Position numbers and translations under genes: made by a program. A DNA stretch of 16,064 bases from Promethearchaeota archaeon. GTDB lineage: Archaea; Asgardarchaeota; Lokiarchaeia; Sigyniarchaeales; SOKP01. The stretch is from assembly GCA_048939015.1 (NCBI GenBank), contig JBHLPW010000087.1, positions 1-16,064 of the forward strand, read 5' to 3'. Positions 1-16,064 of this stretch are shown here, piece by piece; position 1 is the first letter of the stretch, and each line of letters opens with the position of its first letter. The notes under the pieces were generated by a model. The model searched no databases. It saw only the letters and a list, made by a program, of their open reading frames with translations, and was not told the DNA's origin.

Positions 1-42
1 ATGAAAATAGAGTCTTAAACAAATAAAAAGAGTATAAATTTA

Positions 43-1692
43 TTGAGTCTATGGAAAAAGATAGCAAAAAATGAAATTCGCATCAAGACAAGTCGATTTA
101 GAAATCATAGAAGATTATTCATTGTCTTAATTTTTTCTGTCTGTTTTTACTGGGGTGCTTTTATTGGTCCATATTTTATGGATGCAATTATTCCTGAAGT
201 GGTTAAAGAATATTCTTATCAATTTGAAACATTAATTGTTCAACTAATCGAGTTTACTTTTGTTTCATTATTTTTAGTTTCCCTAATGTATCCCCTTTTT
301 GTATTATTTAGAAAATCAGAAGTTATTAATAAAGAGATTATTCTAGCAACTCCAGTTAAATCAGTCGATATTATTTTTGGTGAATTTATAGGTCATATAC
401 CATTCTATTCTTTATTTATTTTAATTGTTGGTCCATTTGGATTAACATTAATTTTACAAATCAATCCAAATATGAACATATTACATTATTTAGTTTATTA
501 TTTATGTATTTTTACCCTTTACATGTTTGGGTCTTTAATAGGAAAATTTATTTCTAATTGGGTTGAAAAGGTGTTAGGACATAAGAGAGTAACAGACTTT
601 AGTAATTTTTTTCTTTTATTGATTTCCATTATAGTTATCACAATATATTATTCCTTTCAATTTATGTTCAATTTCATAAAAATCCATCCTGAATTTAAAG
701 GAATTTTCTTATTCTACCCCTCGTTTTGGTTTTCAAATATTATTCTATATTTTGTTAATTTTACATTAGTTGGATCATATTTTCCTAATATTTGGATTAG
801 TATTATACTTGCAATAACAGTTCCTATTTCTATTTCTTATTTTTTTTATAGAAAAGCCAACTTTTTTTGTGATCTAAACATTTTAGCTGAAAAGGACTCA
901 AAAACAATTAATAAAGAAAATTATTTTTATAATATCATCAAAAAAGGCACCCCTAGAGATTTTAAAGGTTTAGTAACCATTCAATTTAAAGTATTCTTAA
1001 GAAAAAAAGAGAATATATTGAAATTAGTTTATATGATTGGAACTATAAGTGTTCTGGGAGTATTAATATATATTTCTTTTAAAACCCAAATTTTTTCATT
1101 AATTATTGAACCATTAAATATTCCGATAATAATTCAAACAAGGTTTGATAAAAATGCAATTATATTTATATTATCTTGGATGGGAGGCTTGATTTTTGGA
1201 ATATTTATGGGTATGCATGATTTTATTGGTTCAAAAGAAATATTATATGTATATAAAAAATCTATAAGAGGAACCAAAGCACTTCTTTATTCACTCATAT
1301 ATGAAACATTAATTATTTTAATTTTCTATGCTATTTTCTTGACAATTTTTTTCTCTATTATCTACCAAATAGATTCTGTAGTCTCTCTACTATTTTTTCT
1401 AACATATATAATAAACAGTGAAATAATATTTATTCAATCAATTGGAATTCAATGTATTAGACCAATATTCGGGGAATACCAAAAAAATTTGTTTATCAAT
1501 AACTACTTAATTATTTTTATTCAAATTGTTTCATTCTTATTATCACTCTTTATTTTTCTTTATTCTCTATCAATTCTACTAAGCCCTTATTTAGTGCTTA
1601 TCTTAACTATTGTTTTTAATCTTGGAGTTTCAGGATTAATTACATTTTTTATTATGTATTTGGGGAAAAAAAGGTTAGATAAAATTGAATGA
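43..1692 (+). CDS. Polytopic membrane protein, putative ABC-2-type exporter permease (two fused ~6-TM halves)
   Basis: 549-aa ORF with TTG start and about 12 hydrophobic segments. Each half opens with a basic amphipathic helix (IAKNEIRIKTSRFR; LVTIQFKVFLRKKEN). ILATPVKSVDIIFGEF resembles the LLxxP loop of ABC-2 permeases. No ATPase subunit in the window. Confidence 0.6.
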   Translation: MSLWKKIAKNEIRIKTSRFRNHRRLFIVLIFSVCFYWGAFIGPYFMDAIIPEVVKEYSYQFETLIVQLIEFTFVSLFLVSLMYPLFVLFRKSEVINKEIILATPVKSVDIIFGEFIGHIPFYSLFILIVGPFGLTLILQINPNMNILHYLVYYLCIFTLYMFGSLIGKFISNWVEKVLGHKRVTDFSNFFLLLISIIVITIYYSFQFMFNFIKIHPEFKGIFLFYPSFWFSNIILYFVNFTLVGSYFPNIWISIILAITVPISISYFFYRKANFFCDLNILAEKDSKTINKENYFYNIIKKGTPRDFKGLVTIQFKVFLRKKENILKLVYMIGTISVLGVLIYISFKTQIFSLIIEPLNIPIIIQTRFDKNAIIFILSWMGGLIFGIFMGMHDFIGSKEILYVYKKSIRGTKALLYSLIYETLIILIFYAIFLTIFFSIIYQIDSVVSLLFFLTYIINSEIIFIQSIGIQCIRPIFGEYQKNLFINNYLIIFIQIVSFLLSLFIFLYSLSILLSPYLVLILTIVFNLGVSGLITFFIMYLGKKRLDKIE

Positions 1693-1699
1693 GCGTTTT

Positions 1700-1972
1700 T
1701 TAATATTTACTTTTATATTGCTTAATTTTTTTAAAAACTCTATAGAATGTATCCATTATTATAGGAATAGACAAAATAACAAATCCAATTGGATTAAATA
1801 TCATATAATGAATAATTTTTGTAAGAATTTCAATGGTACTAAAAGAAAGTAAATGAAAAATAAAAAACATAAAAATTGCTGATCCAAATACTATTAAAAA
1901 GAAGTTAGATTTCACACTTGATATAAAAAGGATTATAATTATTAAAAAGATAATAGAATCTGCAAATCTCAT
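1700..1972 (-). CDS. Small hypothetical membrane protein (about 3 TM)
   Basis: 90-aa ATG ORF with hydrophobic stretches and a basic C-tail. It fills the gap between convergent genes without overlap. Confidence 0.5.
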   Translation of the reverse strand: MRFADSIIFLIIIILFISSVKSNFFLIVFGSAIFMFFIFHLLSFSTIEILTKIIHYMIFNPIGFVILSIPIIMDTFYRVFKKIKQYKSKY

Positions 1973-2046
1973 AATGTAAATCTGAATAATTAATTTATTA
2001 TTATTTTAAAATTTGAAAAAAAAGAAAAAATTATAATTTATTAATA

Positions 2047-2136
2047 TTATCGATTTTTCTTACGAATATAATAGATTATACCAATGATAGATATTGGAAA
2101 CACTAGCATTAATGTAGCAATTTCATATCCCGGAAT
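2047..2136 (-). other. C-terminal sorting signal (IPGY-TM-basic; Loki-CTERM/PGF-CTERM-like)
   Basis: EIPGYEIATLMLVFPISIIGIIYYIRKKNR* has the motif/TM/basic-cluster layout of archaeosortase-type sorting signals. Confidence 0.7.
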
Positions 2137-3753
2137 CTCTTGCTCTTCAGAATATAAATTAATACTTGCTGCTACAACACCATCAGAAGATAAGGTAGCA
2201 TGATTGAGAAGTCCATTTGAATTCCAATTTGCTTCTGCTTCATAAGCATCTTCATTTCCAGTCAAAGAAATTGTGCCATCTGTCGTAACAGACGCCCAAT
2301 CATAATTATTAGCAACAATTAAACCTTGAGTAAAAGCGAATTGATCATAGAGTGCTAATTGCGGATTTAAATATGTTGATGGATCTACAATATATCCTTG
2401 TGATGTGAAATTAAGGATAGTTTGTAATATTATTGTTACTGTTGATTCACTTGAAACTGGGTCTGCCATGAATAGTGAACTGGATCCTGAGAAGAGATCT
2501 TCTAAATTAGTCCAAGTTTCCATATCCATACTAATAGAGATTGTCATGTCTATTGGTGTTGCATTTTGACCACCCAAAGATGACTGAATTTCAGGATTAA
2601 TTTGATCTATTGCAATTTTTATTCCCATGGTTGATGGAAAACCACCCACTGAAGCAAAAGTTGTTTTAAGTGTATCCCATTGAGGCAAAACATAAGAATT
2701 CCATTGTGTTATAGCATATGTAAGTTGTTCATCAGCTAAATCCAGAATTGTCATAGTATCCCAACCTGAAGGTAAGCCTCCTGACATATTTGCTTCATAA
2801 AGTGCCATATTAAGCCCCCAATTGACAATTGTGGTCATGTTAGCGCCTTCAAGTCCAGGATCCATTGATACAAGACTATAATTCAAAAACGCTCCCATAT
2901 TATCGATAAAGGTTGAAATTGGCTCAGATTCCCATCCCGGAGGAGAAGTACTGTTGATCATATACCATAATCCGTCTATTGCATAGGAAAGATTAACGTC
3001 CCATACCTCAGAAGGTATCATAAATGAAAGGAATTCATCCATTGTAAATGTATCAGCTCCAGGAGGTAACATCATGTAAGCTGTTGATAATAATTGATCC
3101 ATCATTACATAAGGCAAAAAGCTTTCTGATAATACAGGAACAGAATCAACTACAATAGATTCCAATAATTCTTGTAAAGTCATGTCATGCCATCCACTTG
3201 GTAAAAGCCCCATTAATAATGTACTGTTTAATTCATTTAAAGCAAGGTCTAACATAAAGGGGAGAGGCTGATCCTCCCAACCAATAGGAAGAGTCTCATT
3301 AAGCCCATCAATTATAACACCGACAAAAGAAGAATAATTTAAAGATTGCCAATTTACAGGGATTTCTCCCGAAAGAAATGTTGAATTAAATTTAGTAATA
3401 TAATGATCCAATGTTTCATCTAAAAATTCAGAAATATTTAAACCCTCCCACCCTTCAGGTACCATATATGATAAAAGAGTAGTAGATATATTTTCCATAA
3501 TTTCTGGAAGTGTCATAGATTCGAAGCCGTAAAATTCAATATCTGATACTCTAGATTGTATTTCAGTTAATAAGTCATCAACATTTTGGACTGCATTGTC
3601 GATCCCATCAATGTTTAAATTAATCCTCCATTCATATTCTTGTCCTTCTTGTACACCCACATAACCAGCTGGTTGTCCTACTGCAAAAGTTCCAAAAGGA
3701 ATAAATAGTAAAATACCTATCGTTAATAATATCAGTATTTTAAATTTTTTCAT
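2047..3753 (-). CDS. Secreted, membrane-anchored surface glycoprotein with Loki-CTERM-like sorting signal and internal PxGW repeats
   Basis: N-terminal signal peptide (MKKFK plus hydrophobic core), acidic body, many N-x-S/T sequons, and C-terminal EIPGY + TM helix + RKKNR. Confidence 0.8.
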   Translation of the reverse strand: MKKFKILILLTIGILLFIPFGTFAVGQPAGYVGVQEGQEYEWRINLNIDGIDNAVQNVDDLLTEIQSRVSDIEFYGFESMTLPEIMENISTTLLSYMVPEGWEGLNISEFLDETLDHYITKFNSTFLSGEIPVNWQSLNYSSFVGVIIDGLNETLPIGWEDQPLPFMLDLALNELNSTLLMGLLPSGWHDMTLQELLESIVVDSVPVLSESFLPYVMMDQLLSTAYMMLPPGADTFTMDEFLSFMIPSEVWDVNLSYAIDGLWYMINSTSPPGWESEPISTFIDNMGAFLNYSLVSMDPGLEGANMTTIVNWGLNMALYEANMSGGLPSGWDTMTILDLADEQLTYAITQWNSYVLPQWDTLKTTFASVGGFPSTMGIKIAIDQINPEIQSSLGGQNATPIDMTISISMDMETWTNLEDLFSGSSSLFMADPVSSESTVTIILQTILNFTSQGYIVDPSTYLNPQLALYDQFAFTQGLIVANNYDWASVTTDGTISLTGNEDAYEAEANWNSNGLLNHATLSSDGVVAASINLYSEEQEIPGYEIATLMLVFPISIIGIIYYIRKKNR

Positions 3754-3939
3754 AATTAGTTCAGTTGTTTTTTTTTATTTTCTTTTAATAGATTTGAGAT
3801 TTTAATATTATTATCCAAATCCGCTTATTTAAATTTATATCAATTTATATTTGCTTTTTAATACATCAATAAATTACAAAAATGGAGTGGAGTATAAGAA
3901 ATAATATAACTTTTAAAATCATAATTATCCTACTTATTC

Positions 3940-4653
3940 ATGAAAATGAAATTTGAACGATATGAATCTAGATTTAAAGCAGGAGAATTATTAGCAGAAT
4001 TTATTGAAACCAAAATAAAAGAGAATATAAAACAACAAATTCATGCTTCTCAATTTTTCTGTTTTGCAATTCCTAATGGGGGAGTACCTGTTACAGAAGG
4101 ATTTTGTTCCAAATACAAATTGAATTATGATTTGTTGATCGTTCGGAAGATTAAAATTCCTTTTAATACAGAAGCAGGTTTTGGGGCTGTAACGACTGAT
4201 GGGACTGTATTAATCAATAATTCGTTATTAAACAGACTCAATTTATCAGAGAATGAAGTAAAAAATTCAATCAATATAACCAAAAATGAGATTTATGAAA
4301 GAATTAAGTTTTATAACAAAGAATCAAATTTAACGCATTTTTATAACCATTATATTAAAAAAAAGAATATTTTTTTACTCGATGATGGACTGGCTTCAGG
4401 ATTTACTATATTAGCAGCGATAAAAATGATTAAAAAATATAATCCTTCAAATATATTTATTGCTGTTCCTACGGCACCTTTAAGAACAATAAAGAAAATT
4501 GAACTTGAAGTAGATGAGGTTTTTTGTCCTAATATTAGGCAAGTATTGTGGTTTGCCGTTGCTGATGCATATAAGAACTGGTATGATGTTCCAGAATCAG
4601 AAGTATTAAAGATAATTAGTAATTCTCCCTATTACATAACTAATTTAAAATAA
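3940..4653 (+). CDS. Type I phosphoribosyltransferase family protein
   Basis: PRPP-binding loop IFLLDDGLASGFT, plus AIPNGGVPV, IVRKIKIPFNTEAGFGAV and AVADAYKNW, typical of the stand-alone PRTase family. Confidence 0.9.
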   Translation: MKMKFERYESRFKAGELLAEFIETKIKENIKQQIHASQFFCFAIPNGGVPVTEGFCSKYKLNYDLLIVRKIKIPFNTEAGFGAVTTDGTVLINNSLLNRLNLSENEVKNSINITKNEIYERIKFYNKESNLTHFYNHYIKKKNIFLLDDGLASGFTILAAIKMIKKYNPSNIFIAVPTAPLRTIKKIELEVDEVFCPNIRQVLWFAVADAYKNWYDVPESEVLKIISNSPYYITNLK

Positions 4654-4722
4654 AATAATAGCTTAAAGAGCGACTACTGAAGAAATAACTCATGAATAAA
4701 AGAAAAGTAAAAAAAATATAAA

Positions 4723-4989
4723 TTAAGCACTTTCCAATTTGAACAAGATAGAAGAGTGAGGGATATAGAACTCGTCCTTTTTCTTAATGACTACCGTATG
4801 GAAATATTCAGCAAGTCCGAGGAAACCACGGATAACAGATTCATCCTCCTCGAATCTGAAAATTACAGAAGCGATAGCAGCCCCTGTGCTGAAATTCACT
4901 TTATCATAAACTCTTTCGTCAATTAGAGGAATTTTAAGCTCATTTACAATTTCATATACCCGTTTAATGAACAGTTCTCGCTTAGGCAT
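4723..4989 (-). CDS. Hypothetical protein (88 aa, soluble, alpha/beta pattern)
   Basis: Clean ATG ORF, more GC-rich than its flanks, with globular amino-acid composition. Divergent from the 5255 gene. No family recognised. Confidence 0.7.
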   Translation of the reverse strand: MPKRELFIKRVYEIVNELKIPLIDERVYDKVNFSTGAAIASVIFRFEEDESVIRGFLGLAEYFHTVVIKKKDEFYIPHSSILFKLESA

Positions 4990-5254
4990 TTTTATAAAAA
5001 CCTTTTTATTTTATTCCAATTGAAATAATAATAATTTTTAACCTTACTAATGAAATATTTTATATAATATTATTAGTTTAGGTTTTTTAAAAATTAGCTT
5101 TTTTTTAGATTTACGTAATATTCCAGTATATAGAGTCAATAAAGAATGGAATAAAATTATATATACTTATTAATATAATTAAAATATAAAGATTATAACT
5201 AGTAATTTTTATTTTTATCATAAATTCATTAGTATTAGAGGATTTGAGTAGATC

Positions 5255-5965
5255 GTGGTTTCAAAAGAACAGAAAAAAATAGAACGTGTTATTAATTTTA
5301 TGAAAAAAGGTTTAACCTCCCTTGCAGATGATCTAGAGGAGACTGTAAAAGGAATAAATGATTTTATCAAATCATTAGCTAAAGCTCAGAAAGATTTAAA
5401 AGAAGTATCTGTTGTTGAAGAAGTTCATACTGTAAGTACTTCCTCTAAAAAAATAGTAACACCAACAAGTGAGGGTGCAAAAACTGCTGCTGCATCAACA
5501 TTATTTTCTTTGTTAAGTAGTGGCGGGAGTGCTCCAACTACTCCAGGTTCGGTACCTGCAGTTGCTACCGCAGCTCCAACACCTCCCTCGGGAGGAGGAC
5601 CTCCTAAAGCTCCTGCTGGTGGTGGACCCCCTAAAGCTCCTCCTGGTGGAGGACCCCCTAAGCGTCCAGGTTTACCCCCTGCTCCAAAATTACCTCCTGC
5701 AGGTGGTGCACCTCCTATAGCTCCTCCTGGCGGAGGCCCTCCCAAAGCTCCTGGTGGAGGCCCCCCTAAAGCTCCTGCTTTTGCTAAAAGACCTGCAACA
5801 GCCCCTGGCACTCCTCCTGCAGCACCTGGTGGAACACCTCCACCCGCGCCTTCCATGCCTGCTGCTCCTGCTGTAGCATCCCAAGCCGGAGGTGGTTTGG
5901 GTTCACTAAGAGATGAAATGCTTGATGAATTGAATCGCTTGAAGAAAATTATGAGAGGAGAATAA
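5255..5965 (+). CDS. Coiled-coil / proline-rich / C-terminal WH2-like protein (candidate actin regulator)
   Basis: GTG start with AGAGGA at 5237-5242. Heptad repeat at aa 9-51, Gly/Pro/Ala-rich region at about aa 90-205, and C-terminal SLRDEMLDELNRLKKIMRGE. Synonymous variation among the repeats supports this frame. The CDS is secure; the function is inferred. Confidence 0.75.
   Translation: MVSKEQKKIERVINFMKKGLTSLADDLEETVKGINDFIKSLAKAQKDLKEVSVVEEVHTVSTSSKKIVTPTSEGAKTAAASTLFSLLSSGGSAPTTPGSVPAVATAAPTPPSGGGPPKAPAGGGPPKAPPGGGPPKRPGLPPAPKLPPAGGAPPIAPPGGGPPKAPGGGPPKAPAFAKRPATAPGTPPAAPGGTPPPAPSMPAAPAVASQAGGGLGSLRDEMLDELNRLKKIMRGE
5591..5776 (+). repeat. Coding repeat GGGPPK(A/R)P x5 plus degenerate copies
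   Basis: ggaggaggacctcctaaagctcct, ggtggtggaccccctaaagctcct, ggtggaggaccccctaagcgtcca, ggcggaggccctcccaaagctcct and ggtggaggcccccctaaagctcct differ mainly at third codon positions. Confidence 0.9.
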
Positions 5966-5974
5966 AACCTTCGC

Positions 5975-5993
5975 TTTTTGTTTTTTCTTTTTT
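5975..5993 (+). terminator. Putative archaeal oligo-T terminator
   Basis: tttttgttttttctttttt begins about 10 nt after the 5965 stop. The AT-rich background lowers specificity. Confidence 0.45.
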
Positions 5994-6062
5994 AAAATAA
6001 CCACTATTTCTTTATATTGAATTGAAAAGAATTTTGAATTACTAATTAAAAAGCTATCATAA

Positions 6063-6809
6063 ATGTCTGATAACTCATATTTAATTTATGATGATAGGAC
6101 TCCTATTATTGTCCCAAAACGGATGATGATCTTTGCTGGTCACCCAGATGATGAAATAATATCTTGTGGGGGAACACTCCTAAAATATCAAAAACTTGGA
6201 ACCGATATAACTATCATTATTGCTACAACTGGTTTAGGAGGTTATGCCAAGGAAAAACATAAAGATAATATAGCTGAAAGAAGGGAAAAGGAATTAAAAC
6301 TAATAAAATCCTTATTAAATTGTGAGATTATTGAGTTAGAGTACTCAGAGTTACAAATTGATAGATCTAAAATTTCTCAGATTACTAATCTTATACGGAA
6401 TTATAAACCTCAAGTAATATTACTGCCTCATTATTCTGATTTTCACCGTATTCATAGAAATCTGTCATTAATTACACGAGAGGCAATTTATCATTGCAGT
6501 ACTGGTAAGGCATATGGTGGTCATCAAAAAAGTTGGACTCCTTTGGGAGTATTTTATTATGAATCTCCCTCATGCAAATTTCAATATATTGAGGGATCAG
6601 TTTTTATTATTGTTAATATCGAGAATTATTGGGAAAAAAAAAAAGAAATTTTCAATCAAGTTTATGTATCCCAAAAAGAAATATTAGAAAGAGTCCTTGA
6701 TTGGGCAGAGGATACTGCTATATTGAGAGGAAATGAAATTAACGCTGGTTATGGTGAAGCTTACATTCCTGAAACTACATATACTCCTTTAAAAATTCTA
6801 TTAATATAG
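6063..6809 (+). CDS. PIG-L/LmbE family deacetylase
   Basis: FAGHPDDEIISCGGTL metal motif, ATTGLGG, RREKE helix, IRNYKPQVILLP, second His motif DFHRIH (canonical HxDH), and C-terminal YVSQ...GEAY. Confidence 0.9.
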   Translation: MSDNSYLIYDDRTPIIVPKRMMIFAGHPDDEIISCGGTLLKYQKLGTDITIIIATTGLGGYAKEKHKDNIAERREKELKLIKSLLNCEIIELEYSELQIDRSKISQITNLIRNYKPQVILLPHYSDFHRIHRNLSLITREAIYHCSTGKAYGGHQKSWTPLGVFYYESPSCKFQYIEGSVFIIVNIENYWEKKKEIFNQVYVSQKEILERVLDWAEDTAILRGNEINAGYGEAYIPETTYTPLKILLI

Positions 6810-6887
6810 AAGTACGGAGATTTTTTTAATAATTAAAACAATATATTAGATATAATAATTTAAGCTAAATTTCAACTATATTTAGGC

Positions 6888-8009
6888 ATGGGAAACATAA
6901 CAGTTGTTCTTGATATAGGTCAGTTCAGCACAAAAATTGGATTTGCGGGTGAAGATTCACCATCACAAGTCTTCTTAACAATGGTAGGAACACCCAAATA
7001 TCAAAGTGTTGATGTTAGTTATGAATCTAAACATTCACGGGAAGATGAAATATATGTAGGAGATGAAATTCAATCAATTGGATTATATAAAATTTCCCAT
7101 CCTATTGAAAAAGGAATTGTTGTAGATTGGAATCATTTTAAGAACATTATTGATTATATTTTCTACAATTTGAGAGTGGATCCAACTCTTGTCAATGTAT
7201 TATTAGCGGTCCATCCATTATTTCCTTATAAAGATTTAGAGAAAATATTTCAGTTATTTTTAGAAAAATATCAATGCATGGCTTTTTATCCTGTATTAGA
7301 TTCAATGCTGACGTTATATTCAGGAGGTTTTCAAACAGGATTAATCGTGGAGATAGGAGATAGTAATACCCGAATAGTACCAATTTATGAGGGATATAAA
7401 CTAGAACATGCAGTACGGATTCTAGATATTGGAGGAAGAGTTTTAACTCATTATATGGAACAGATTTTGGAATCCATTGGTTGGTCCGTTGACTCTTCTA
7501 TTAGACGGGAACTTGTAAGAGTCTTAAAAGAAAAAGCATGTTTTGTTTCCTTAGATTATAAAGAAGACATAAAACGGAGTGAACAATATGAAAAAGAATA
7601 TTCTCTCCCAGACGGTTCTACGATCTCACTTAATAAAGAAAGATTTATTGTTCCAGAAATATTATTCAAGCCGACTTCAGAATTAGAAGAAGTTTCATTA
7701 CCAGCAGCAATAATGGATGTAATTGAAGAATGTGATTTAGATATCCGTCCAGACTTATTGAACAATATATTTCTCTCAGGCGGATCCTCCATGTTTCCTA
7801 ATATGAAATCCCGTATGTATCAAGAATTAGAATTGGAATTAGCAAGGCGTAAGAAGAAAAATTTAGGTATTCGAATTATAGCTCCAATGGAAAGAACTTT
7901 TTCTGTGTGGATTGGCGGTTCAATCTTAGCGATGATCCCTGAATTTTCGCAAAATTGGATTTCTCGTGCTAAATATTTTAATGAAGGAATACCACCTAAT
8001 CTTCTTTAA
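6888..8009 (+). CDS. Actin family protein (divergent Asgard actin-related protein)
   Basis: Colinear with eukaryotic actin: KIGFAGEDSP, YVGDE, PIEKGIVVDW, FYNLRVDP, VPIYEGY, LDIGGRVLT, KEKACFVSLDY, YSLPDG, ERFIVPEILFKP, CDLDIRPDL, LSGGSSMFP, APMERTFSVWIGGSILA. Confidence 0.95.
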   Translation: MGNITVVLDIGQFSTKIGFAGEDSPSQVFLTMVGTPKYQSVDVSYESKHSREDEIYVGDEIQSIGLYKISHPIEKGIVVDWNHFKNIIDYIFYNLRVDPTLVNVLLAVHPLFPYKDLEKIFQLFLEKYQCMAFYPVLDSMLTLYSGGFQTGLIVEIGDSNTRIVPIYEGYKLEHAVRILDIGGRVLTHYMEQILESIGWSVDSSIRRELVRVLKEKACFVSLDYKEDIKRSEQYEKEYSLPDGSTISLNKERFIVPEILFKPTSELEEVSLPAAIMDVIEECDLDIRPDLLNNIFLSGGSSMFPNMKSRMYQELELELARRKKKNLGIRIIAPMERTFSVWIGGSILAMIPEFSQNWISRAKYFNEGIPPNLL

Positions 8010-8125
8010 AATATCATAATTTATACCGGTGAAATATCCATATAACATTAAGATATTACATTTTGTTAAATAAATACTCTCAATATTAAATCATATTATT
8101 ATTATTTTTAAAGAGATAACTAAAT

Positions 8126-8467
8126 ATGGAAAAATTTGATGATAATAGGTATTATAAACCAAGCTATTCACATTTATTTAATAAAATAAAGGACATTAAA
8201 ACCCCTATAAAAAATGAAATCTTAATTGCACTCCTCGATGGTCATTGGCATTCAGAATTAGAATTAATAAGAGTCACTAAAAAACAGCATGGATTTGTAG
8301 GTCCTGTAACACTGGGAACTATGATACATGGTTTAAATCATACTATTAAAAATAATTATCTTCAGAAAAAAATCGTAAATGGTAAGTTATTTTATAAAAT
8401 ATCAGACAATTATGTGGGACTTACACGAGCAGCGTATAGATTTGACTCAAATGATTTTCTGAAATAA
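8126..8467 (+). CDS. Hypothetical protein, probable winged helix-turn-helix
   Basis: KNEILIALLDGHWHSELELIR (helices 1-2), GPVTLGTMIHGL (helix 3) and YLQKKIVNGKLFYKIS (beta wing) fit the wHTH pattern by eye. Confidence 0.55.
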   Translation: MEKFDDNRYYKPSYSHLFNKIKDIKTPIKNEILIALLDGHWHSELELIRVTKKQHGFVGPVTLGTMIHGLNHTIKNNYLQKKIVNGKLFYKISDNYVGLTRAAYRFDSNDFLK

Positions 8468-8501
8468 GATAAAACCCTATTAAAAATATTTCAAGGAAAA
8501 C

Positions 8502-8978
8502 CTAACCTTTTTTTAAAGTTTTCAATGCTATGATATTCAAGAGTAATATCATAATAGTAAAATAATATCCAAATCCAACTACATAAAGAAATAATGCGAA
8601 ATTCATTAGTAGTATAAAGAAAATAATGATTCCGAAGATCAAGAGAATTATACTTAAGAGGAGAATATTAATTTGAAATAACTTTATAGAATTACTCAAT
8701 TTTACTTTATTTGTTGATGCAAATATTGAACATATTCCAATATAAAAAAACATTATCCATATACCTGCAGATATAATTACTTCTGAGATATTTCCTCCTA
8801 CTGCTGTATATGCCATATTTCCATTGATCAAATAACCCCAGGAGTAACATTCTAAATTATTTAGAATAAAAATACTAAAAGATAGTTCCAAATTTTCTGG
8901 CGGATAAATTGGAATTTTAGCTACAAATGATAAAATTAGAGTAAAAATTCCAGCAACGATTCCTGATTTTATAGTCAT
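8502..8978 (-). CDS. Four-TM membrane protein
   Basis: 158 aa: TM1, a long loop, TM2, a short basic loop, TM3, GFGYY, then TM4. Confidence 0.7.
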   Translation of the reverse strand: MTIKSGIVAGIFTLILSFVAKIPIYPPENLELSFSIFILNNLECYSWGYLINGNMAYTAVGGNISEVIISAGIWIMFFYIGICSIFASTNKVKLSNSIKLFQINILLLSIILLIFGIIIFFILLMNFALFLYVVGFGYYFTIMILLLNIIALKTLKKG

Positions 8979-8994
8979 TTATCATGCCTCTTTC

Positions 8995-9495
8995 TTATTC
9001 AATTGGATGTTTCCAATAGCCTATTATAGCAATGATTAGATCTAATATTAAAATGTAAAACCCATAATTTAGAAAAATAAAAATATCTAAAATGTTTATA
9101 AAGGTTCCAAGAATTTCTAAGCTTAAAATTGGAATTCCAATGATTATATATAAGATAATTATGATTATAATAATAAAATTAAATAACATTAATTTCTTGC
9201 CTATTGGATTTTCTTTAAAAAAGCCTACTATTATTAAAATCGTTGCTGATGGCATTAACACAATAAATAAAACTCCTGTTAATAAATTGGCCTCAAACCA
9301 AGTTTGAAATACTCCATTTGTAATTACACCCAAAAAAAACAAGTGGCTATTTTGATAAGAAATTAATTGAATGGGTATTCTCACATAGAAATTTACATAA
9401 GGATTTTGAAATTGAAAATAAAAACCAAGTGGTATAAATTGTAGAAAAAATAAAGTATTTGTTAGGATTAAACAAAGAAATCCAAATTTATTCAT
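8995..9495 (-). CDS. Four-TM membrane protein, likely distant paralog of 8502-8978
   Basis: 166 aa with the same topology and NYGFY before TM4. Only 16 nt separate it from the next gene. Confidence 0.7.
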   Translation of the reverse strand: MNKFGFLCLILTNTLFFLQFIPLGFYFQFQNPYVNFYVRIPIQLISYQNSHLFFLGVITNGVFQTWFEANLLTGVLFIVLMPSATILIIVGFFKENPIGKKLMLFNFIIIIIIILYIIIGIPILSLEILGTFINILDIFIFLNYGFYILILDLIIAIIGYWKHPIE

Positions 9496-9551
9496 GTTAT
9501 TAGATTTGAATGTTATAATATTTGCTTTTTATAATAATAATAAATTATTTT

Positions 9552-11696
9552 TTATTTTTTTATGCATCTCCCTTTGATGATTCTATATTCCTCACATTTT
9601 GAACAGAATCCTTTGTCTGATTTCTCTTTAAAACTTTCATTCCAACATTTTGGGCATAAATAATAAGTCAGAAGCTTATTGTTTTTATTAAGTGTAACTT
9701 CAAATATATTAAAATTACAAATTGAACATACTGATTCTAATAATTTCAACTTTCCATTTTTTGGTAAAGATAAGTATTGCTTACAGTTATCATCAGAACA
9801 AACTAAGAATCTCTTGTTTTTTAAATTTATGAATTTCATCGGGTTTTTATCACAAAAGGGGCAATATGAAGTGGTAAGTGGGATAGTATATTCAATCTTA
9901 TAATCATTAATTTTGGTAACTAATTTATGTTTGTTTACAAGAAATTTATCAAATAGCTGTAGAAACTCATGTCTTACTTCATCTATAACATTTCTCATAT
10001 CTCGTTTATTATTTTTAATTTCCTCTAACTTTTGTTCCACATCCTTAGTAAATTGAGGTTTTAAGAAAGGTAACCATACTTCTATTAAATTTTCAATAAT
10101 AAATTTACCCAAATCCGTTATATTATAATTATATTTTACTCTTTCTATTAATCTTCGGGTTTGTAGTAATTTTATTATAATTGGTCTTGTTGATTTTGTA
10201 CCAAGGTGATTTTTTTCCATTAACTTAAGTAGGGTTGTATCTGTATATGTAGGAGGAGGTGTTGTCTCTTTTTGAAGAAATTTTATTTCCTTTATAGGAA
10301 GTACATCATCAACGATTTGGATTTCTGAATCATATTTTGGTTTAAGAAATGGAGCAATTTCTAAGAATCCAGGTGAAATTAATGAAACAATTTGAGATAT
10401 AAATTGCTCATCTTTTATCAGAATTTCTAACCTTTGCTTTGATTCTAAAGCATCTTCTCCAAAAAGTGCAAGATAATGGCGAGCAAGAATATTATAAACT
10501 TTTTTCTGCAATTCATTCTCAAGTCTTAAATCATTAAGCTCTAAACTTTCTATAGGAGTAATAGGAGGATGATCTCCCATATCTTTGGTTCCACTCGTCG
10601 GGTCAATTCTATTATTCATTATCAATTTTTTTGTATAATTTTGAAATAGTGAATGTAAAGTAAATTTCTGTAATATATTACTGTGATTAAAATCTGATTT
10701 ATAAACATCACTATCAGTTCTTGGGTAAGAGATTATTTTATTTAGATACAAAGAGTTCATTGTTTGCATTGCTAAACTTGCAGGTATCCGTAATTGTTTA
10801 GTTAATAGTACTAATGCTTTTGATGTATTCAATGGTTTTGGTGGAGATTTTTTTACGATATTTTTCGAATTATCTAAGATTTTTCCAATAACTTCATCTT
10901 TTATTTTTTGATATATTTTTCTCGCAATGTTTTCTTGTTCTTTCTTAAAAGGATTATGTTGGTGATGAGCTTGAATAACGAAACTTTTATTTAGCAAATC
11001 AGCATCTATTAGAAAATAAGGTTCGGGTTTAAAGTTAATTATTTCGAGTGCTCTAAGATATATTAAATAGAGGAGACTAGTCTGAACACGTCCTATAGAT
11101 GTAAATTTAACTTTAAATTTATTCAATAATAAGCGAAGTGTATTTGTAACTTCTCGAGTAGCAGAAAAACCTATAAATGCATCGATAATTGCTCTTGCTT
11201 CTCCAGATTCACCCCAAGAATATTTGGGTTTTATAAGATTGTTAAATTTATTAATAATTTCATTTTTTTGTAAAGAACTAAGCCACATTTGTGAAACCGT
11301 AATATTTGGATTCATTTTTTTTATAAATGGAAGCGCATCGAAAAAACCTATATTACATCCTTCAATATCAGCATCAGTACCGATTATACAATGATTAGAA
11401 ATTTTAGAATATTCTTTCAAAGTTTTTATATAGGAATAAGCATAATTATTAGGTACTTTTTCAATAGCAGAGGGATTAGTTATAATTTCTCGTGGAGCAG
11501 GTTTGGTCCAGCTCTTGAAAGCATCTGTATTTCTATATTCAAGTATATGTCCTCTTAAAGGAATTACATAAATATCTTTTGATATTACCAAATAGATTTT
11601 CAACTTTTTTGTCTTTTCTATAACTTTAACCGGTCCTAATGCCTGTGCTATTGCTTCTGCTGCTTTATTTTTTTCTGTGATTATTAAAGTTGTCAT
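9552..11696 (-). CDS. topA: DNA topoisomerase type IA with C-terminal zinc ribbons
   Basis: TOPRIM motifs LIITEK, GHILE and GTDADIEG; SIGRVQT; catalytic ISYPRTDS; DHPPITP; LGTKSTR; C-terminal Cys pairs (CPFC, CSDDNC, CSIC, CPKC, CSKC). Confidence 0.93.
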   Translation of the reverse strand: MTTLIITEKNKAAEAIAQALGPVKVIEKTKKLKIYLVISKDIYVIPLRGHILEYRNTDAFKSWTKPAPREIITNPSAIEKVPNNYAYSYIKTLKEYSKISNHCIIGTDADIEGCNIGFFDALPFIKKMNPNITVSQMWLSSLQKNEIINKFNNLIKPKYSWGESGEARAIIDAFIGFSATREVTNTLRLLLNKFKVKFTSIGRVQTSLLYLIYLRALEIINFKPEPYFLIDADLLNKSFVIQAHHQHNPFKKEQENIARKIYQKIKDEVIGKILDNSKNIVKKSPPKPLNTSKALVLLTKQLRIPASLAMQTMNSLYLNKIISYPRTDSDVYKSDFNHSNILQKFTLHSLFQNYTKKLIMNNRIDPTSGTKDMGDHPPITPIESLELNDLRLENELQKKVYNILARHYLALFGEDALESKQRLEILIKDEQFISQIVSLISPGFLEIAPFLKPKYDSEIQIVDDVLPIKEIKFLQKETTPPPTYTDTTLLKLMEKNHLGTKSTRPIIIKLLQTRRLIERVKYNYNITDLGKFIIENLIEVWLPFLKPQFTKDVEQKLEEIKNNKRDMRNVIDEVRHEFLQLFDKFLVNKHKLVTKINDYKIEYTIPLTTSYCPFCDKNPMKFINLKNKRFLVCSDDNCKQYLSLPKNGKLKLLESVCSICNFNIFEVTLNKNNKLLTYYLCPKCWNESFKEKSDKGFCSKCEEYRIIKGRCIKK

Positions 11697-11881
11697 TATT
11701 ACTTTATAATACTGCTTTAAATTGCTACTTTTTAATTTTTAAGAAAGAACATAATTTCATTACAATTAATTAAATTTCTGGTTATTAATTAAAAAAAAAT
11801 TAGATTATATTGATTTTTAATTATTGTAATATATTTGAACTTTAATTTTACCGAAAATAGAATAAATTAGATATATTGAAA

Positions 11882-14800
11882 TTAAAACGGTAATGTAAAT
11901 GAAAATTTCGAACCTTTATTATCACCCTCAGAATTTGCCCAGATTTCACCTTGATGAGCATTTATTATTCCCTTAGTTATATAAAGCCCTAATCCAGTTC
12001 CAGAATCCTTAATACTTATATGATCATTAATAATAGGAGGCTTAATTCTTTCAAATTTCTTAAATAATCTTCCAATTTCATCTTGAGCTAGACCAATTCC
12101 ATTATCTTTTATCTCAAAAATATAATGGTCCTCTTTTTTTTCAGAAGATATCTTTATCCAACCATAATCTGGAGTGAATTTTATCGCATTTGAAAGTAAA
12201 TTTGTAAATACAGTGAAAATTCTTGTTTGATCTATGTTCAAAATAATTTCATGATCGATATTTAGTATTATTTCAAGATTCTTTTCATTGATCAAATAAC
12301 TGAGTTCATCAAGACAATCACTAATGATTTTACTAATATTAATAGTCTCTTTTTGTAACTTTAACTCATTTTCATCTATTTTCAATACATCTAAAAGTTG
12401 ATCCATCAAAATTTCTAATCTATTCACATTCCTTTGTACAGTTAATAAATCCCTTGTAATTTCGGCGTTAAGTTGATTTCGATATTTCATCAAAATATAA
12501 TCAGTATATCCAGAAATCGAGATTAATGGAGTTTTTAATTCATGAGCTGCCATTGTTATGAAATCATTCTTAACTTTATCAAGCTTTCTCAATTCAATAT
12601 TCTGTTGCCTTAATTTCATTTCTGATTCTTTTAATTCTTGTTCCAATCTGAATTTTTCAGTAATATCAGAAAAGGTTCCTTCAATAAGCATAGGATTGCC
12701 ATTTTCATCTCGTTTTAGGTGAGCATTTACTTGTATTACTATATTCTCTCCATTTTTTTTTTTTAACTGGAACAATATAATTTCTTATTACTCCATTTTG
12801 TTGTAATAGTTTATCATATCTCTCTCTATCCTCTGGTTTTTGCCAAGAAAATGGAGGTGATTGTCCAATTAAATTTTCATTAGGATCATACCCGGCTATC
12901 CTACAAAATGCTGGATTATGGTATAATATATTTCCTTCCCACTGTATCATATAATATCCTTCATCTAAATTAGTTATCATATTTCTGAAATTTTTCTCGG
13001 ATTCAATGAGTTGATTTTCCATTTTCTTACTCTCAGTAATATCTCGTATAATTGTGATTACTTGATTAACACGATTTTCACTAAATATTGGAATCTTCCT
13101 TGTTTCAGTGAAAATTTCAGTTGTATTTAACAAAATACTTCCCTCTGTAATAAGAGTTTCTCCACTTTCAAAAACTAATTTATATTCTTCGTGTATTTCA
13201 TCAGGTAAGAAAGGAAAAGCATCAAAAACATTCAGACCTACAATTTTTTTATCGATATCTAGATTTCTAAGCCAAGAATCAAATGCAGAATTAGCGAGAA
13301 TTATATTTAAGTTTTTGTCAATAACATGTAAGGGATCGCTCAATGAATTAATTGTAGTTCGATATTGTTGTTCCGATTTGATTAAGTCTTTAGTTCTTTC
13401 TAGTACTTTTTGCTCCAAATCTCTATTCAATATTCGAAGTTCTTCTTGAGAGTTCTTCAATTCCTCTTCCGCTCGTTTTTTTTCAGTAATATCTTGTATA
13501 ATTACTTGAAAAACAGTCTCATCTCCAATTTCAACGAGAGAATCCTCTACGTTAATCCACATTAGAGAACCACTTTGCGATTTGGCAATTTGGACTTCAA
13601 GTGGTTCTGGGATAATACCTTGCAATAGATATTGATATCTATCTTTAAGTAAGGGTAAGGTTTTTTCAGGTTTTATATTTAGATCTAAAAAATTTTTATT
13701 AATTAAAGTCTCTATTTTTCTATTAAATAATTTCTCAGTAACAGGGTTACAATCGATTATTTTTCCTTTCCTATTAATTAATATAATTGAATAAGGAGAT
13801 TTCTCGAATAAATGTCGATATTTTGTTTCTGATTCTTTTATTTTTTGTTCAGCATTCTTCTTATCAGTTATATTTTGTATAATCGCTTGGGTTAATATTT
13901 GGTCACCGATATTTACAAGTGAACTAGTGATTGAAAGCCATATTTTTGTTCCATCAACTCGAGTTATTTGAAATTCTAATGGTCCTAGTTTTTCTCCTGT
14001 TAAAAATCTCTTAAATCGATTCTTTAATATATTTATGAGATAATCAGATCTTTTTAACACAGATAATACATCAGAAAATTTTCTTCCTATCAAATCTTTT
14101 ATTTCTAAAGTTGATAGTAAATCATTCATAGTTGAATTACAATCGACTATTACACCTTCTTCATCCATGAGCCAAATAGCATAAGGAGAACTCTCAAATA
14201 AATGACGATATTTCTTTTCAGATTCTTTTAATTTTTGTTCAGCCTGTTTACGGAGAGTTATATCTCTCGCTAAATTTAATATTTTTTGTACTTTCCCATT
14301 TTCCTTCAATGGTACAGAATTTACTTCATATTCAAAAATTTCTCCACTATAGGCTTGTGCTTTTATTTCAACACCTTTGATCTCTTTACCAGAAATTATA
14401 AGTTCTCCAATTTTTCTTAACTCGTCAAGATTTTCTCCCACATAAAACTTTGAAAAATTAATACCACGAACTTCATTTAATGTTGTACCAATTCTTTCCA
14501 GTAAAGCAGGATTCATATCTAAAATATTTCCTTTAGTATCTGTAATAAATATATAATCTGGACTAGCATTGAAAATAGTCCGATATTTCTCTTCAGATTC
14601 TTTAATTTTTTGTTGTAAAATATATTTCTCTGTAATATCTCTTGCTAAGCCATTAAAGCCAATTTTATTCCCTTCTGAATCATAGCTTAAATACACAGAA
14701 GATTCGCATGTTACTAAAGCTCCATTTTTTTTCTTAAACTGATATTGGAATCCAGACTGGGGCTTTGAGGTACTAAAAACTTGACTATAAACATTAAAAA

Positions 14801-15830
14801 TTTTATCTTTATTTTCTTTATCAACAAAGTTTTGGTAATTTGAATTAAGCAACTCATTTTTCGAGTAACCAATAAGTTCAACAAACGCATCATTGAAAAA
14901 TGTAAAATTTCCTTCTAAATCAACTTCAAAATATGTTTCCTTAATATTTTCCAGGATTCCACGATATTTTTCTTCTGATTCCTTTAACTTTTGTTCTGCT
15001 ATTTCACGTATAGTTATATCTTCATATGTGACAAGTATTCCAACAACTCCTCCTTTAGGGTCATGTAAAGGAATACGATTTATCTCAAACCAAGTTTGTT
15101 TACCATTAACTAAAGTCATTGATTCTACAGTATTATATTCAGCAGAATTATTCTTCATGACTTCATTTTCTTTACTTTTAATAGATTTCACATTATCCTT
15201 AATCCATATTATATCTTCATCAGTACTCCCAATGATGCTAGTTGGTTCTGATATATGGTTTAGGAGGGCAAAATTCTTATTACAACCCATATAAACCAAG
15301 TTTGTGTCTTTCCAATAAATAAGTTGAGGTATATTGTCCAATACTAATTCTAACATTTCCCTTGTTTTCTGAGCAACACTTTTTCCTTCGCGTGTTTGGA
15401 GTAATTTCCAAAATTGAATTTCTGGCACATAATCTGCTAATTCACCGAATCTTGCTTGGCTCCTTTGCATTTTGAACTCAAGATCCTTAAATTTTGTTAT
15501 TTCTCTGCAAATTAGAAGAACTTTTTTTTTATCATCCTCATTATCTCTAAAACTTTTCCCTTTAACCTCGAACCACTTAAATGGATTACCTTTATATTTA
15601 ATTTGTGCATCTATAACTCCAAAACCAGTTTTATAAATATTTTTTATTAGCCGATTTACTCCTTTCAAATCATCAGGATGAATAAATTCATTAAAATTTC
15701 TTTTTGATGTAAAATCCTCAAAATTGATATATTCACACTGGTTTTTACCATTAATAATAAATATCAGATCATCAATATTTTCAGAAAATATTTGACCAAT
15801 TTTACTGTAACTTTCAAATGTGCTTGTCAT
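11882..15830 (-). CDS. Cytoplasmic multi-PAS (about 8) sensor histidine kinase, interrupted by a one-base frameshift at 12753-12764
   Basis: ORF 12705-15830 holds tandem PAS domains with ESEEKYR/RDIT linkers. ORF 11882-12775 finishes the last PAS and carries the H-box AAHELKTPL, N-box NLLSNAIKFT, G1 DNGIG, F-box LFKKF and G2 GTGLGL. Removing one A joins them into a 1315-aa protein. Confidence 0.9.
12753..12764 (-). repeat. A12 homopolymer at the kinase frameshift
   Basis: Twelve consecutive T on the + strand. A11 would restore the reading frame. Confidence 0.9.
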
Positions 15831-16005
15831 TTCTTACAATTACCCCATACATCATTTTAGATTTTTATTAATCCAACAATTTATCATAAAATTTATCCTT
15901 TCTTATGAAAAAATTAGACATATTTAAATATATTTTTTATCTATTTAGAAATCATTAAAGTTAATTTGTACAACAATAGAATGATAAAAAAAAAATCAAT
16001 TATTT

Positions 16006-16064
16006 TTAGCTTAACCCAAATCGCTTGTCCATCCCCTCATAAATTTCCTCATCTTTTCCTGTCT
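16006..16064 (-). CDS. Possible 3' end of a gene entering from beyond the window
   Basis: Purine-rich open frame ...TGKDEEIYEGMDKRFGLS*, followed by a T10 tract on the - strand (15986-15995). An alternative frame is also open and the fragment is too short to identify. Confidence 0.35.
   Translation of the reverse strand, partial: TGKDEEIYEGMDKRFGLS

Follow-up and report, generated by a model that had tools for sequence, protein, structure and literature searches.

The 16,064-nucleotide (nt) stretch analyzed here and referred to as the window (contig JBHLPW010000087.1, positions 1 to 16,064, assembly GCA_048939015.1) comes from a Promethearchaeota archaeon of the order Sigyniarchaeales and encodes a 236-residue protein (gene 1, P0001; 5255..5965, + strand) that belongs to a genuine and broad family, present throughout the Asgard archaea and undescribed in the literature that we searched. 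We propose, with a probability of about 0.35, that this protein is a modular tethering adaptor whose C-terminal helix (hereinafter the end helix) docks in the hydrophobic groove of actin, as do the corresponding parts of arcadin-2, ParR and WH2 proteins; binding to the actin groove would, at the same odds of roughly one in three, be the single most likely mechanism for the end helix. The initial annotation of this region had described gene 1 as the first of four genes of an actin-regulatory locus and had suggested that proteins of this kind escape standard annotation. The contig is very AT-rich (GC content 0.22-0.41), and the genome, at 4.86 Mb, is 95 % complete.

The suggestion that gene 1 is missed by standard annotation is borne out. 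The protein is conserved but corresponds to no Pfam family, and its homologs, which form about 200 clusters in the protein collection, are labelled "hypothetical" in every case; searches with the complete protein and with its two ends produced no match to any family in Pfam or NCBIfam. Homologs were detected in 38 of the 41 close relatives and in 245 of the 400 genomes sampled across the phylum. The gene starts with GTG, and the N-terminus of the product, MVSKEQKK, is the same as in homologs. Within the order, the first 50 and the last 22 residues are nearly invariant and, given this conservation of both termini and the approximately 200 homologs, gene 1 is not a chance feature. Full-length soluble forms are encoded in four other families as well and in genomes of only 1.4 Mb (Odin-sized).

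The AlphaFold2 model of the gene 1 protein, which was built on a 17-sequence alignment, agrees with the anatomy proposed initially, namely an N-terminal helix, a proline-rich region and a C-terminal helix with the LKKI motif, and the resemblance of this layout to that of actin-assembly factors is upheld to this extent. The model consists of a heptad-like helix of 47 residues (residues 4-50; 5264..5404, + strand; predicted local distance difference test score, pLDDT, 85-93, on average about 90) which is conserved across the order and presumably serves as an oligomerisation or anchoring module; a weaker, short amphipathic helix (residues 72-88; 5468..5518, + strand; pLDDT about 60) with the motif AAxxLFxLLSG (78-90), in which A79, A80, L83 and L87 are invariant among 17 diverse members in the order-wide alignment; a disordered segment (residues 89-214); and the end helix (residues 215-234; 5897..5956, + strand; pLDDT about 90), which is continuous and contains RLKKIM. 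With a predicted template modelling score (pTM) of 0.22, the protein has no globular fold. A profile of residues 1-95 retrieved only 38 cluster representatives among 1.8 billion proteins and matched no known family. Most of the disordered segment is a Pro/Gly/Ala spacer of about 120 residues with GGGPPKAP repeats (5537..5884, + strand; pLDDT 44-57), which stands out as a local GC-rich island (GC content 0.39-0.41 versus approximately 0.25-0.30 in the flanking regions) and differs among the homologs in length and in the type of repeats. Two short motifs are fixed in the order-wide alignment: LPPAPKLPP (residues 140-148; 5672..5698, + strand), the prolines of which are invariant in 17 members of the order, and F-AKRP (residues 176-180). 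Proline runs never exceed three residues, and there is no tryptophan anywhere in the protein.

Among 17 members representing the whole phylum, the end helix follows the consensus hydrophobic-x-x-L-[RKQ]-x-E-M-[LM]-x-E-[LIM]-x-R-[LI]-K-x-[ILF]-[MF], with L218, M222, E225 and R228 invariant and E221, L229 and K230 nearly so. The spacer that precedes it is much less conserved, a contrast that would be expected if the end helix were a docking motif for a slowly evolving partner. The search for structural look-alikes of the end helix in the ESM Atlas returned only members of its own cluster or meaningless single-helix matches. In a whole-genome motif scan, the only other look-alike encoded in the same genome, FLRDEMIHELNNLRDLI (C6:5967-6458), occupies an internal position in a 163-residue protein with Cys-rich, zinc-ribbon-like motifs.

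The family is modular. In five taxonomic families, f13, f16, f18, f28 and f31 (here and below, f and g followed by a number are our codes for families and genera, respectively), the proline-rich spacer and the end helix are joined to an N-terminal transmembrane segment and a different coiled coil. Judging by the sequence, the remainder of these membrane-anchored forms is likely to be cytoplasmic because basic residues come after the transmembrane segment. The neighbours of the membrane-anchored variants, which encode a ribose-5-phosphate isomerase, a KH-domain ATPase and a LOR/scramblase-like protein, provide no functional hint. A metagenomic protein of 549 residues (P0250) contains the entire gene 1 module together with a transmembrane segment and, at the C-terminus, a TIR-like domain; it is a singleton and might be a read-through of two genes.

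The second conserved component, located outside the interval covered by the initial annotation, is a gene that is divergent from gene 1 in the window and encodes an 88-residue alpha/beta protein (hereinafter FAM1; 4723..4989, - strand). FAM1 homologs are found beside gene 1 homologs in 10 of the 17 loci, in variable orientation; these loci come from f1, f2, f3, f5, f6, f7, f19 and f21 and thus from several families and classes. The 396 homologs of FAM1 correspond to no Pfam family, and FAM1 itself matched nothing in Pfam or NCBIfam. The AlphaFold2 model is confident (pLDDT 92.6, pTM 0.84), with the order helix, strand, strand, helix and three strands, but fold searches gave no convincing match (Foldseek against the PDB, E > 0.3; VIA wide, best Z 4.4); the C-terminal beta-alpha-beta-beta-beta part shows a weak likeness to half of a glyoxalase module (Z 3-4), and ESM Atlas look-alikes were again limited to its own cluster or to meaningless single-helix matches. 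FAM1 is encoded in 181 of the 400 genomes, in f1-f7, f19-f21, f26, f27 and one genus of f31, a range that largely coincides with that of the soluble forms of gene 1; it was not found in f16 (0 of 22 genomes) and f18 (0 of 12), where only membrane-anchored forms were seen. The complementarity is imperfect inasmuch as genus g76 has both FAM1 and the membrane-anchored form. We infer that FAM1 works with the N-terminal module of gene 1, and that the end helix acts as a docking unit in its own right that can be moved between proteins. In the window, the FAM1 gene is intact, and in four congeners (G208, G217, G205 and G002) it contains a single in-frame TAG near the N-terminus of the profile match, which could reflect recoding, an alternative start or decay.

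Under the adaptor reading, the N-terminal module, either together with FAM1 or swapped for a membrane anchor, would fix or oligomerise the gene 1 protein, the proline-rich spacer would provide reach, and the end helix would be the docking peptide for a very conserved partner. This partner would most likely be actin, bound in the groove between subdomains 1 and 3. Lokiactin is a likelier target than the actin paralog encoded nearby (see below) because it is present in all Asgard lineages, although the paralog may bind too. The gene 1 protein would then recruit or sequester actin monomers at a defined place, and would be neither an operon partner of the neighbouring actin paralog nor a WASP-type activator.

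The closest parallel to this arrangement is arcadin-2 of Pyrobaculum (PDB 5LY3), the last 17 residues of which bind the hydrophobic groove of crenactin with a Kd of 31 nM (PMC5173319); the C-terminal helix of ParR binds the hydrophobic groove of ParM likewise (cited in PMC5173319). Like gene 1, arcadin-2 is an archaeal protein encoded in the vicinity of an actin-family gene, and its structured N-terminal part is connected by an unstructured linker, which is not conserved, to a small conserved helix that ends the chain; compared with the published description (PMC5173319), gene 1 displays the same layout, a conserved extreme C-terminal helix beyond a non-conserved linker. The two proteins differ in that there is no sequence similarity between them, the tryptophan involved in binding is absent in gene 1, and arcadin-2 is crenarchaeal and lacks the proline-rich repeats, the membrane-anchored variants and the FAM1-like partner that characterize gene 1, the helix of which is a putative actin binder. 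ParR, the adaptor of the ParMRC system, is likewise a small protein whose C-terminal helix inserts in the groove of an actin-like ATPase encoded alongside, but it has an N-terminal DNA-binding fold and acts on ParM, whereas here the DNA-binding candidate beside the actin paralog is gene 4 rather than gene 1. With Ena/VASP, BimA, TARP and VopL, gene 1 shares an oligomerisation helix, a proline-rich tract and a single short putative actin-binding helix, that is, the logic of a multivalent recruiter. Compared with Ena/VASP, however, the order of the parts is reversed, with the coiled coil N-terminal in gene 1 and a tetramerisation coiled coil C-terminal in Ena/VASP, and gene 1 lacks an EVH1 domain (neither EVH1 nor any other Pfam domain was detected in it), the F-actin-binding site and, because its proline runs never exceed three, classical profilin sites.

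The likeness to WH2 proteins (WASP/WAVE, WIP and thymosin beta-4) consists of an RxxLLxxI-type helix and an LKK plus aliphatic motif just after a proline-rich region. In the WASP family, the WH2 helix has the pattern RxxLLxxI, and LKK[TV] lies in an extended segment approximately 5-7 residues after the last hydrophobic residue of the helix. R219, M222, L223 and L226 of gene 1 fit the first half of this pattern, and across the phylum these positions are occupied by R/K/Q, an invariant M, L/M and L/I/M, respectively. Unlike in WH2 proteins, the motif of gene 1 forms the very C-terminus of the protein, with no C or A region behind it.

Several observations weigh against actin as the partner of the end helix. 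The WH2 profile (PF02205) gave no match, either to the whole gene 1 protein at E <= 1 or to residues 190-236 at E <= 10, although the HMMER filters may drop very weak matches. The spacer between the helix and LKK is 2 residues compared with about 5 in WASP-type WH2, L226 and L229 being only 3 residues apart; the model has one continuous helix over residues 215-234, with I232 and M233 on its hydrophobic face; and LKK is replaced in the family by LKS, LKA, LRE, IKE or LKT. Searched against the PDB, the profile of the end helix recovered generic coiled-coil heptads only (GCN4, M protein) and no actin binder. FAM1, the neighbour that is shared between classes, is not known to be connected with actin, and the linkage of gene 1 to the actin paralog is lost outside f1 and, inside f1, is no tighter than that to a topoisomerase or a phosphoribosyltransferase. 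Finally, in Lokiarchaeum ossiferum, where the gene 1 homolog adjoins the acyltransferase UYP44327.1 and FAM1 is UYP44135.1, the locus tags GNAMCCOK_00617-00623 and 00426-00428 do not occur among the covered rows of the lokiactin co-immunoprecipitation data, those with a log2 ratio of at least -1.06, which speaks weakly against a stable lokiactin complex; the tags were inferred from UYP44327.1 and the tag table of 10.1101/2025.11.30.690169 and are uncertain by about one gene, the homolog being approximately GNAMCCOK_00620/00621 and FAM1 approximately 00427. The claim that gene 1 is a WH2 protein fails on profile, spacing and predicted conformation. The claim that it is a WASP-type nucleation-promoting factor fails as well: such factors have a central (C) helix and an acidic (A) tail with a tryptophan behind the WH2, whereas the gene 1 protein lacks a C/A region, ends 3 residues past the helix (...KIMRGE) and has no tryptophan.

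A bolder version of the actin reading, which we hold as tentative and somewhat doubtful, is that the end helix genuinely binds the actin groove as a kind of proto-WH2. The family would in that case be the factor so far lacking in Asgard archaea that delivers actin monomers to membranes or other sites and favours their assembly, and it would stand as an analog or antecedent, in archaea, of assembly factors of the WH2 and Ena/VASP type. The soluble form would then work with FAM1, and the other form would be anchored in the membrane. Asgard archaea build dynamic actin-filled protrusions and, to our knowledge, no Asgard nucleator, elongator or membrane-linked actin recruiter has been found. As of late 2025, profilins and gelsolins were the only named regulators of lokiactin (10.1101/2025.11.30.690169). 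The gene 1 family is a candidate for this role: its members couple an anchoring module through a proline-rich spacer to a presumed docking helix compatible with the first half of the WH2 pattern, and there are both soluble and membrane-anchored versions. If the helix binds actin, regulated, site-directed actin assembly would predate eukaryogenesis; if it binds another partner, such as Vps4 or FAM1, the family would still constitute a conserved two-gene Asgard module of eukaryote-like short linear motifs that is unnamed in the databases. In this genome, no match was found to profilin (PF00235), which was not detected in any control genome either.

The strongest competitor of the adaptor reading, although we consider it unlikely, is that the end helix makes no more than a coiled-coil or helical-bundle contact, whether by self-association or by pairing with the N-terminal helix or FAM1, so that FAM1 and gene 1 would form a scaffold that has no connection to actin or ESCRT. 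The helix can indeed be read as a zipper, with hydrophobic residues of the a/d type at positions 215, 222, 226, 229 and 233, and with E225 in a g position and K230 in an e position, the pattern of parallel zippers; among the PDB matches of its profile, the best are GCN4 heptads (EVARLKKLM) and the repeats of the M protein. The conservation of FAM1 as a neighbour across classes, over a range that largely matches the soluble forms, fits such a scaffold too, as does the abundance of FAM1 and of a gene at about the position of the gene 1 homolog in the proteomes of L. ossiferum (tags 00427 and 00621, with the same uncertainty of mapping). Ordinary coiled coils, however, drift, whereas L218, M222, E225 and R228 are invariant throughout the phylum, and nothing in the model, with its pTM of 0.22, points to an intramolecular bundle. 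Moreover, the helix is retained where a membrane anchor replaces the N-terminal module and FAM1 was not found (f16 and f18), so that the partner is unlikely to be the N-terminal helix or FAM1 alone.

Much less probable is the possibility that the end helix is a MIM1-type motif recognized by the MIT domain of a protein such as Vps4 and that LPPAPKLPP is MIM2-like; gene 1 would then act as IST1 does and bring the ESCRT disassembly ATPase to a site or membrane. ESCRT-III proteins with MIM1 and IST1 end in an amphipathic helix in which positions i, i+4 and i+7 are hydrophobic and K/R comes next; in IST1, a proline-rich linker precedes it. In gene 1, which shares this arrangement, the hydrophobic triad and the basic residue are M222, L226, L229 and K230; relative to the MIM1 pattern (D/E)xxLxxRLxxL(K/R), the triad and the lysine are present, and the arginine is replaced by an invariant glutamate, as in the ESCRT-III of this genome. 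In Asgard archaea, Vps2/24/46 proteins reportedly have leucine-rich MIM1-like C-terminal helices and Vps20/32/60 proteins proline-rich MIM2-like motifs (PMC7240154). A Vps4 with an MIT domain (C10, about 9.58-9.78 kb) is encoded in this genome. When a hidden Markov model (HMM) of the end helix was run against the C-terminal 40 residues of the 4307 open reading frames (ORFs) of the genome, the first non-self match was an ESCRT-III protein (C10:9984-10631) that ends in ELEKELNRLKS and has ELNRLK in common with gene 1. This match is weak, however (E 0.16, 8 aligned positions), the reverse scan with a profile of the C-terminal helix of Asgard ESCRT-III ranked gene 1 only 447 of 3573, and the helix HMM gives scores close to zero for most ESCRT-III C-termini from other lineages. 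Gene 1 contains no Snf7 core (PF03357), the two Snf7 proteins of the genome are encoded elsewhere, no ESCRT gene is among the conserved neighbours, and the end helix is more conserved than the MIM1 motifs of ESCRT-III.

The initial annotation had envisaged a four-gene unit in which an oligomerised WH2 protein clusters an Arp-like actin into a nucleus, as a forerunner of the NPF/Arp (nucleation-promoting factor and actin-related protein) systems; this is very improbable in light of the synteny check, because the linkage of gene 1 to the actin paralog turned out to be limited to a single family, f1, as interrupted block synteny, and with it the notion of a conserved actin locus falls. The arrangement in the window itself is as described there: the ORFs 5255-5965, 6063-6809, 6888-8009 and 8126-8467 are all on the + strand and are separated by gaps of 97, 78 and 116 nt. 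Almost all of the approximately 117 f1 genomes retain the order gene 1, (PIG-L), actin paralog, gene 4. Throughout its orthogroup, the paralog lacks the equivalents of Q137 and H161, and the position of G15 is taken by a bulky residue, which fits a non-canonical, Arp-like role. Many lineages, however, have gene 1 homologs and no actin paralog, gene 1 contains no C/A region, and ARPC4 (PF05856) was not found in this 95 %-complete genome, although this search, which gave no match in any control genome either, had no positive control. The oligo-T tract that had been noted after gene 1 as an argument against a simple operon is indeed present, as a T-rich stretch read directly in the sequence (5970..5993, + strand) that likely is an archaeal terminator signal; a scan for bacterial-type promoters and terminators, a method not applicable to archaea, remained at the background level, with nothing at 5970-5993.

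For the synteny check, the positions of gene 1 homologs were compared with those of the orthologs of the actin paralog, and six f1 loci from other genera were examined. In f1 (13 genera, among which the actin orthologs are 62-95 % identical), nearly every genome with both genes on one contig has gene 1 upstream of the actin gene and in the same orientation, at a distance of approximately 130-280 nt where they are direct neighbours, approximately 850-1100 nt where PIG-L lies between them, which is the commonest arrangement, or 2-6 kb. They are parts of a syntenic run of about 10 genes that encode a phosphoribosyltransferase, FAM1, gene 1, PIG-L, actin, gene 4, (two transmembrane proteins), a topoisomerase and a PAS kinase. 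Given that the whole run is syntenic and that insertions, namely a gene for a 1319-residue protein (L050) or three genes on the opposite strand (L049), intervene between gene 1 and the actin gene, we interpret their linkage as block synteny among relatives, not special coupling. In f2, the sister family of f1, gene 1 is either 44-100 kb away from the actin ortholog or on a different contig; in f4, gene 1 homologs are present and the best actin matches are lokiactin only; and in other classes gene 1 homologs have no such actin alongside. What speaks for a tie to actin is the proximity of the two genes in f1 and, in f3, the position of gene 1 next to the PIG-L gene, which in genus g5 of f2 is translationally coupled to this actin. 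The tight partners of the actin paralog are PIG-L and gene 4, not gene 1: in genus g5 of f2, the PIG-L and actin genes have either a 1-nt overlap or a 15-nt gap between them, and actin and gene 4 are adjacent in all 7 f1 loci. Small GTPase genes, which are numerous in Asgard genomes, so that their recurrence near gene 1 and actin may be due to chance, were observed at several of these loci: a Ras-family gene immediately preceding the actin paralog in two f2 genera (L054 6780-7364, L056 and L057), a Ras-family gene beside the gene 1 homolog in g5 (L027 5260-5811), and an Arf-like gene beside the membrane-anchored variant in f18 (L037 396-1319).

The actin paralog itself (gene 3, ActinB; 6888..8009, + strand) is, as initially assigned, an actin homolog, with a match to the Actin family (PF00022, 4.2e-92, residues 5-367); its best solved relatives are eukaryotic actins (3e-87). 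It is one of three actin-family genes in the genome and is 42 % identical to the lokiactin encoded on another contig (C12, about 153.35-154.49 kb). Compared with this lokiactin, 12 orthologs of the paralog from two families share the substitutions N12 to I/M, S14 to Q/E/A, G15 to F/Y, H73 to K/N, Q137 to D/G, G158 to S/A and H161 to R, and thus the catalytic and phosphate-loop residues of actin (S14, G15, Q137, G158 and H161) are not kept; the orthogroup also has a distinct conserved C-terminus, GIPExLL. Judging by these residues, the paralog probably is not a normal ATP-hydrolysing polymer former, and the designation "Arp-like" is apt in the loose sense of a divergent, probably non-canonical ATPase, to which the conserved substitutions at the nucleotide site point, and only in that sense. 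The third actin-family gene (L003 1477-2991, contig C69 of the same genome) encodes a protein of 504 residues with a long insertion after residue ~330 that carries CxxC...CxxC zinc-ribbon-like motifs; its orthologs, of approximately 500-560 residues, are found throughout the order.

The gene between gene 1 and the actin paralog (gene 2; 6063..6809, + strand) encodes, as proposed, a deacetylase of the PIG-L/LmbE family (PF02585, 5e-22, over the whole model) that is below the cut-off for the BshB1, MshB and Mca equivalogs. PIG-L is directly upstream of the actin paralog in f1 and in genus g5 of f2. In a family other than that of the window, the two genes are translationally coupled (L053 5695-7566; L058 5031-6913), a tie between a sugar or amide deacetylase and an actin.

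The small protein encoded downstream of the actin paralog (gene 4; 8126..8467, + strand), co-oriented with it in the 7 f1 loci, had been called a winged helix-turn-helix protein. This is plausible, given that a profile built from its orthologs matches AspA, a winged-helix protein, but only at a borderline E of 0.04. Neither Pfam nor NCBIfam gave a match. AspA is an archaeal centromere-binding winged-helix protein, and an actin-like ATPase gene followed by that of a small DNA-binding adaptor recalls the ParM/ParR layout.

Two further ORFs or ORF pairs in the window deserve a comment. The antisense ORF 5425-5856 (- strand, 143 residues) is a Gly/Pro-rich mirror of the proline-rich coding region of gene 1 (CCN versus GGN codons) and almost certainly is not a gene. 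On the same strand, an ORF encoding a PAS array (11882-12775) and a histidine kinase ORF (12705-15830) overlap by 71 nt in different frames, whereas relatives have single longer PAS-kinase genes at this place, which suggests a frameshift or a homopolymer error here.

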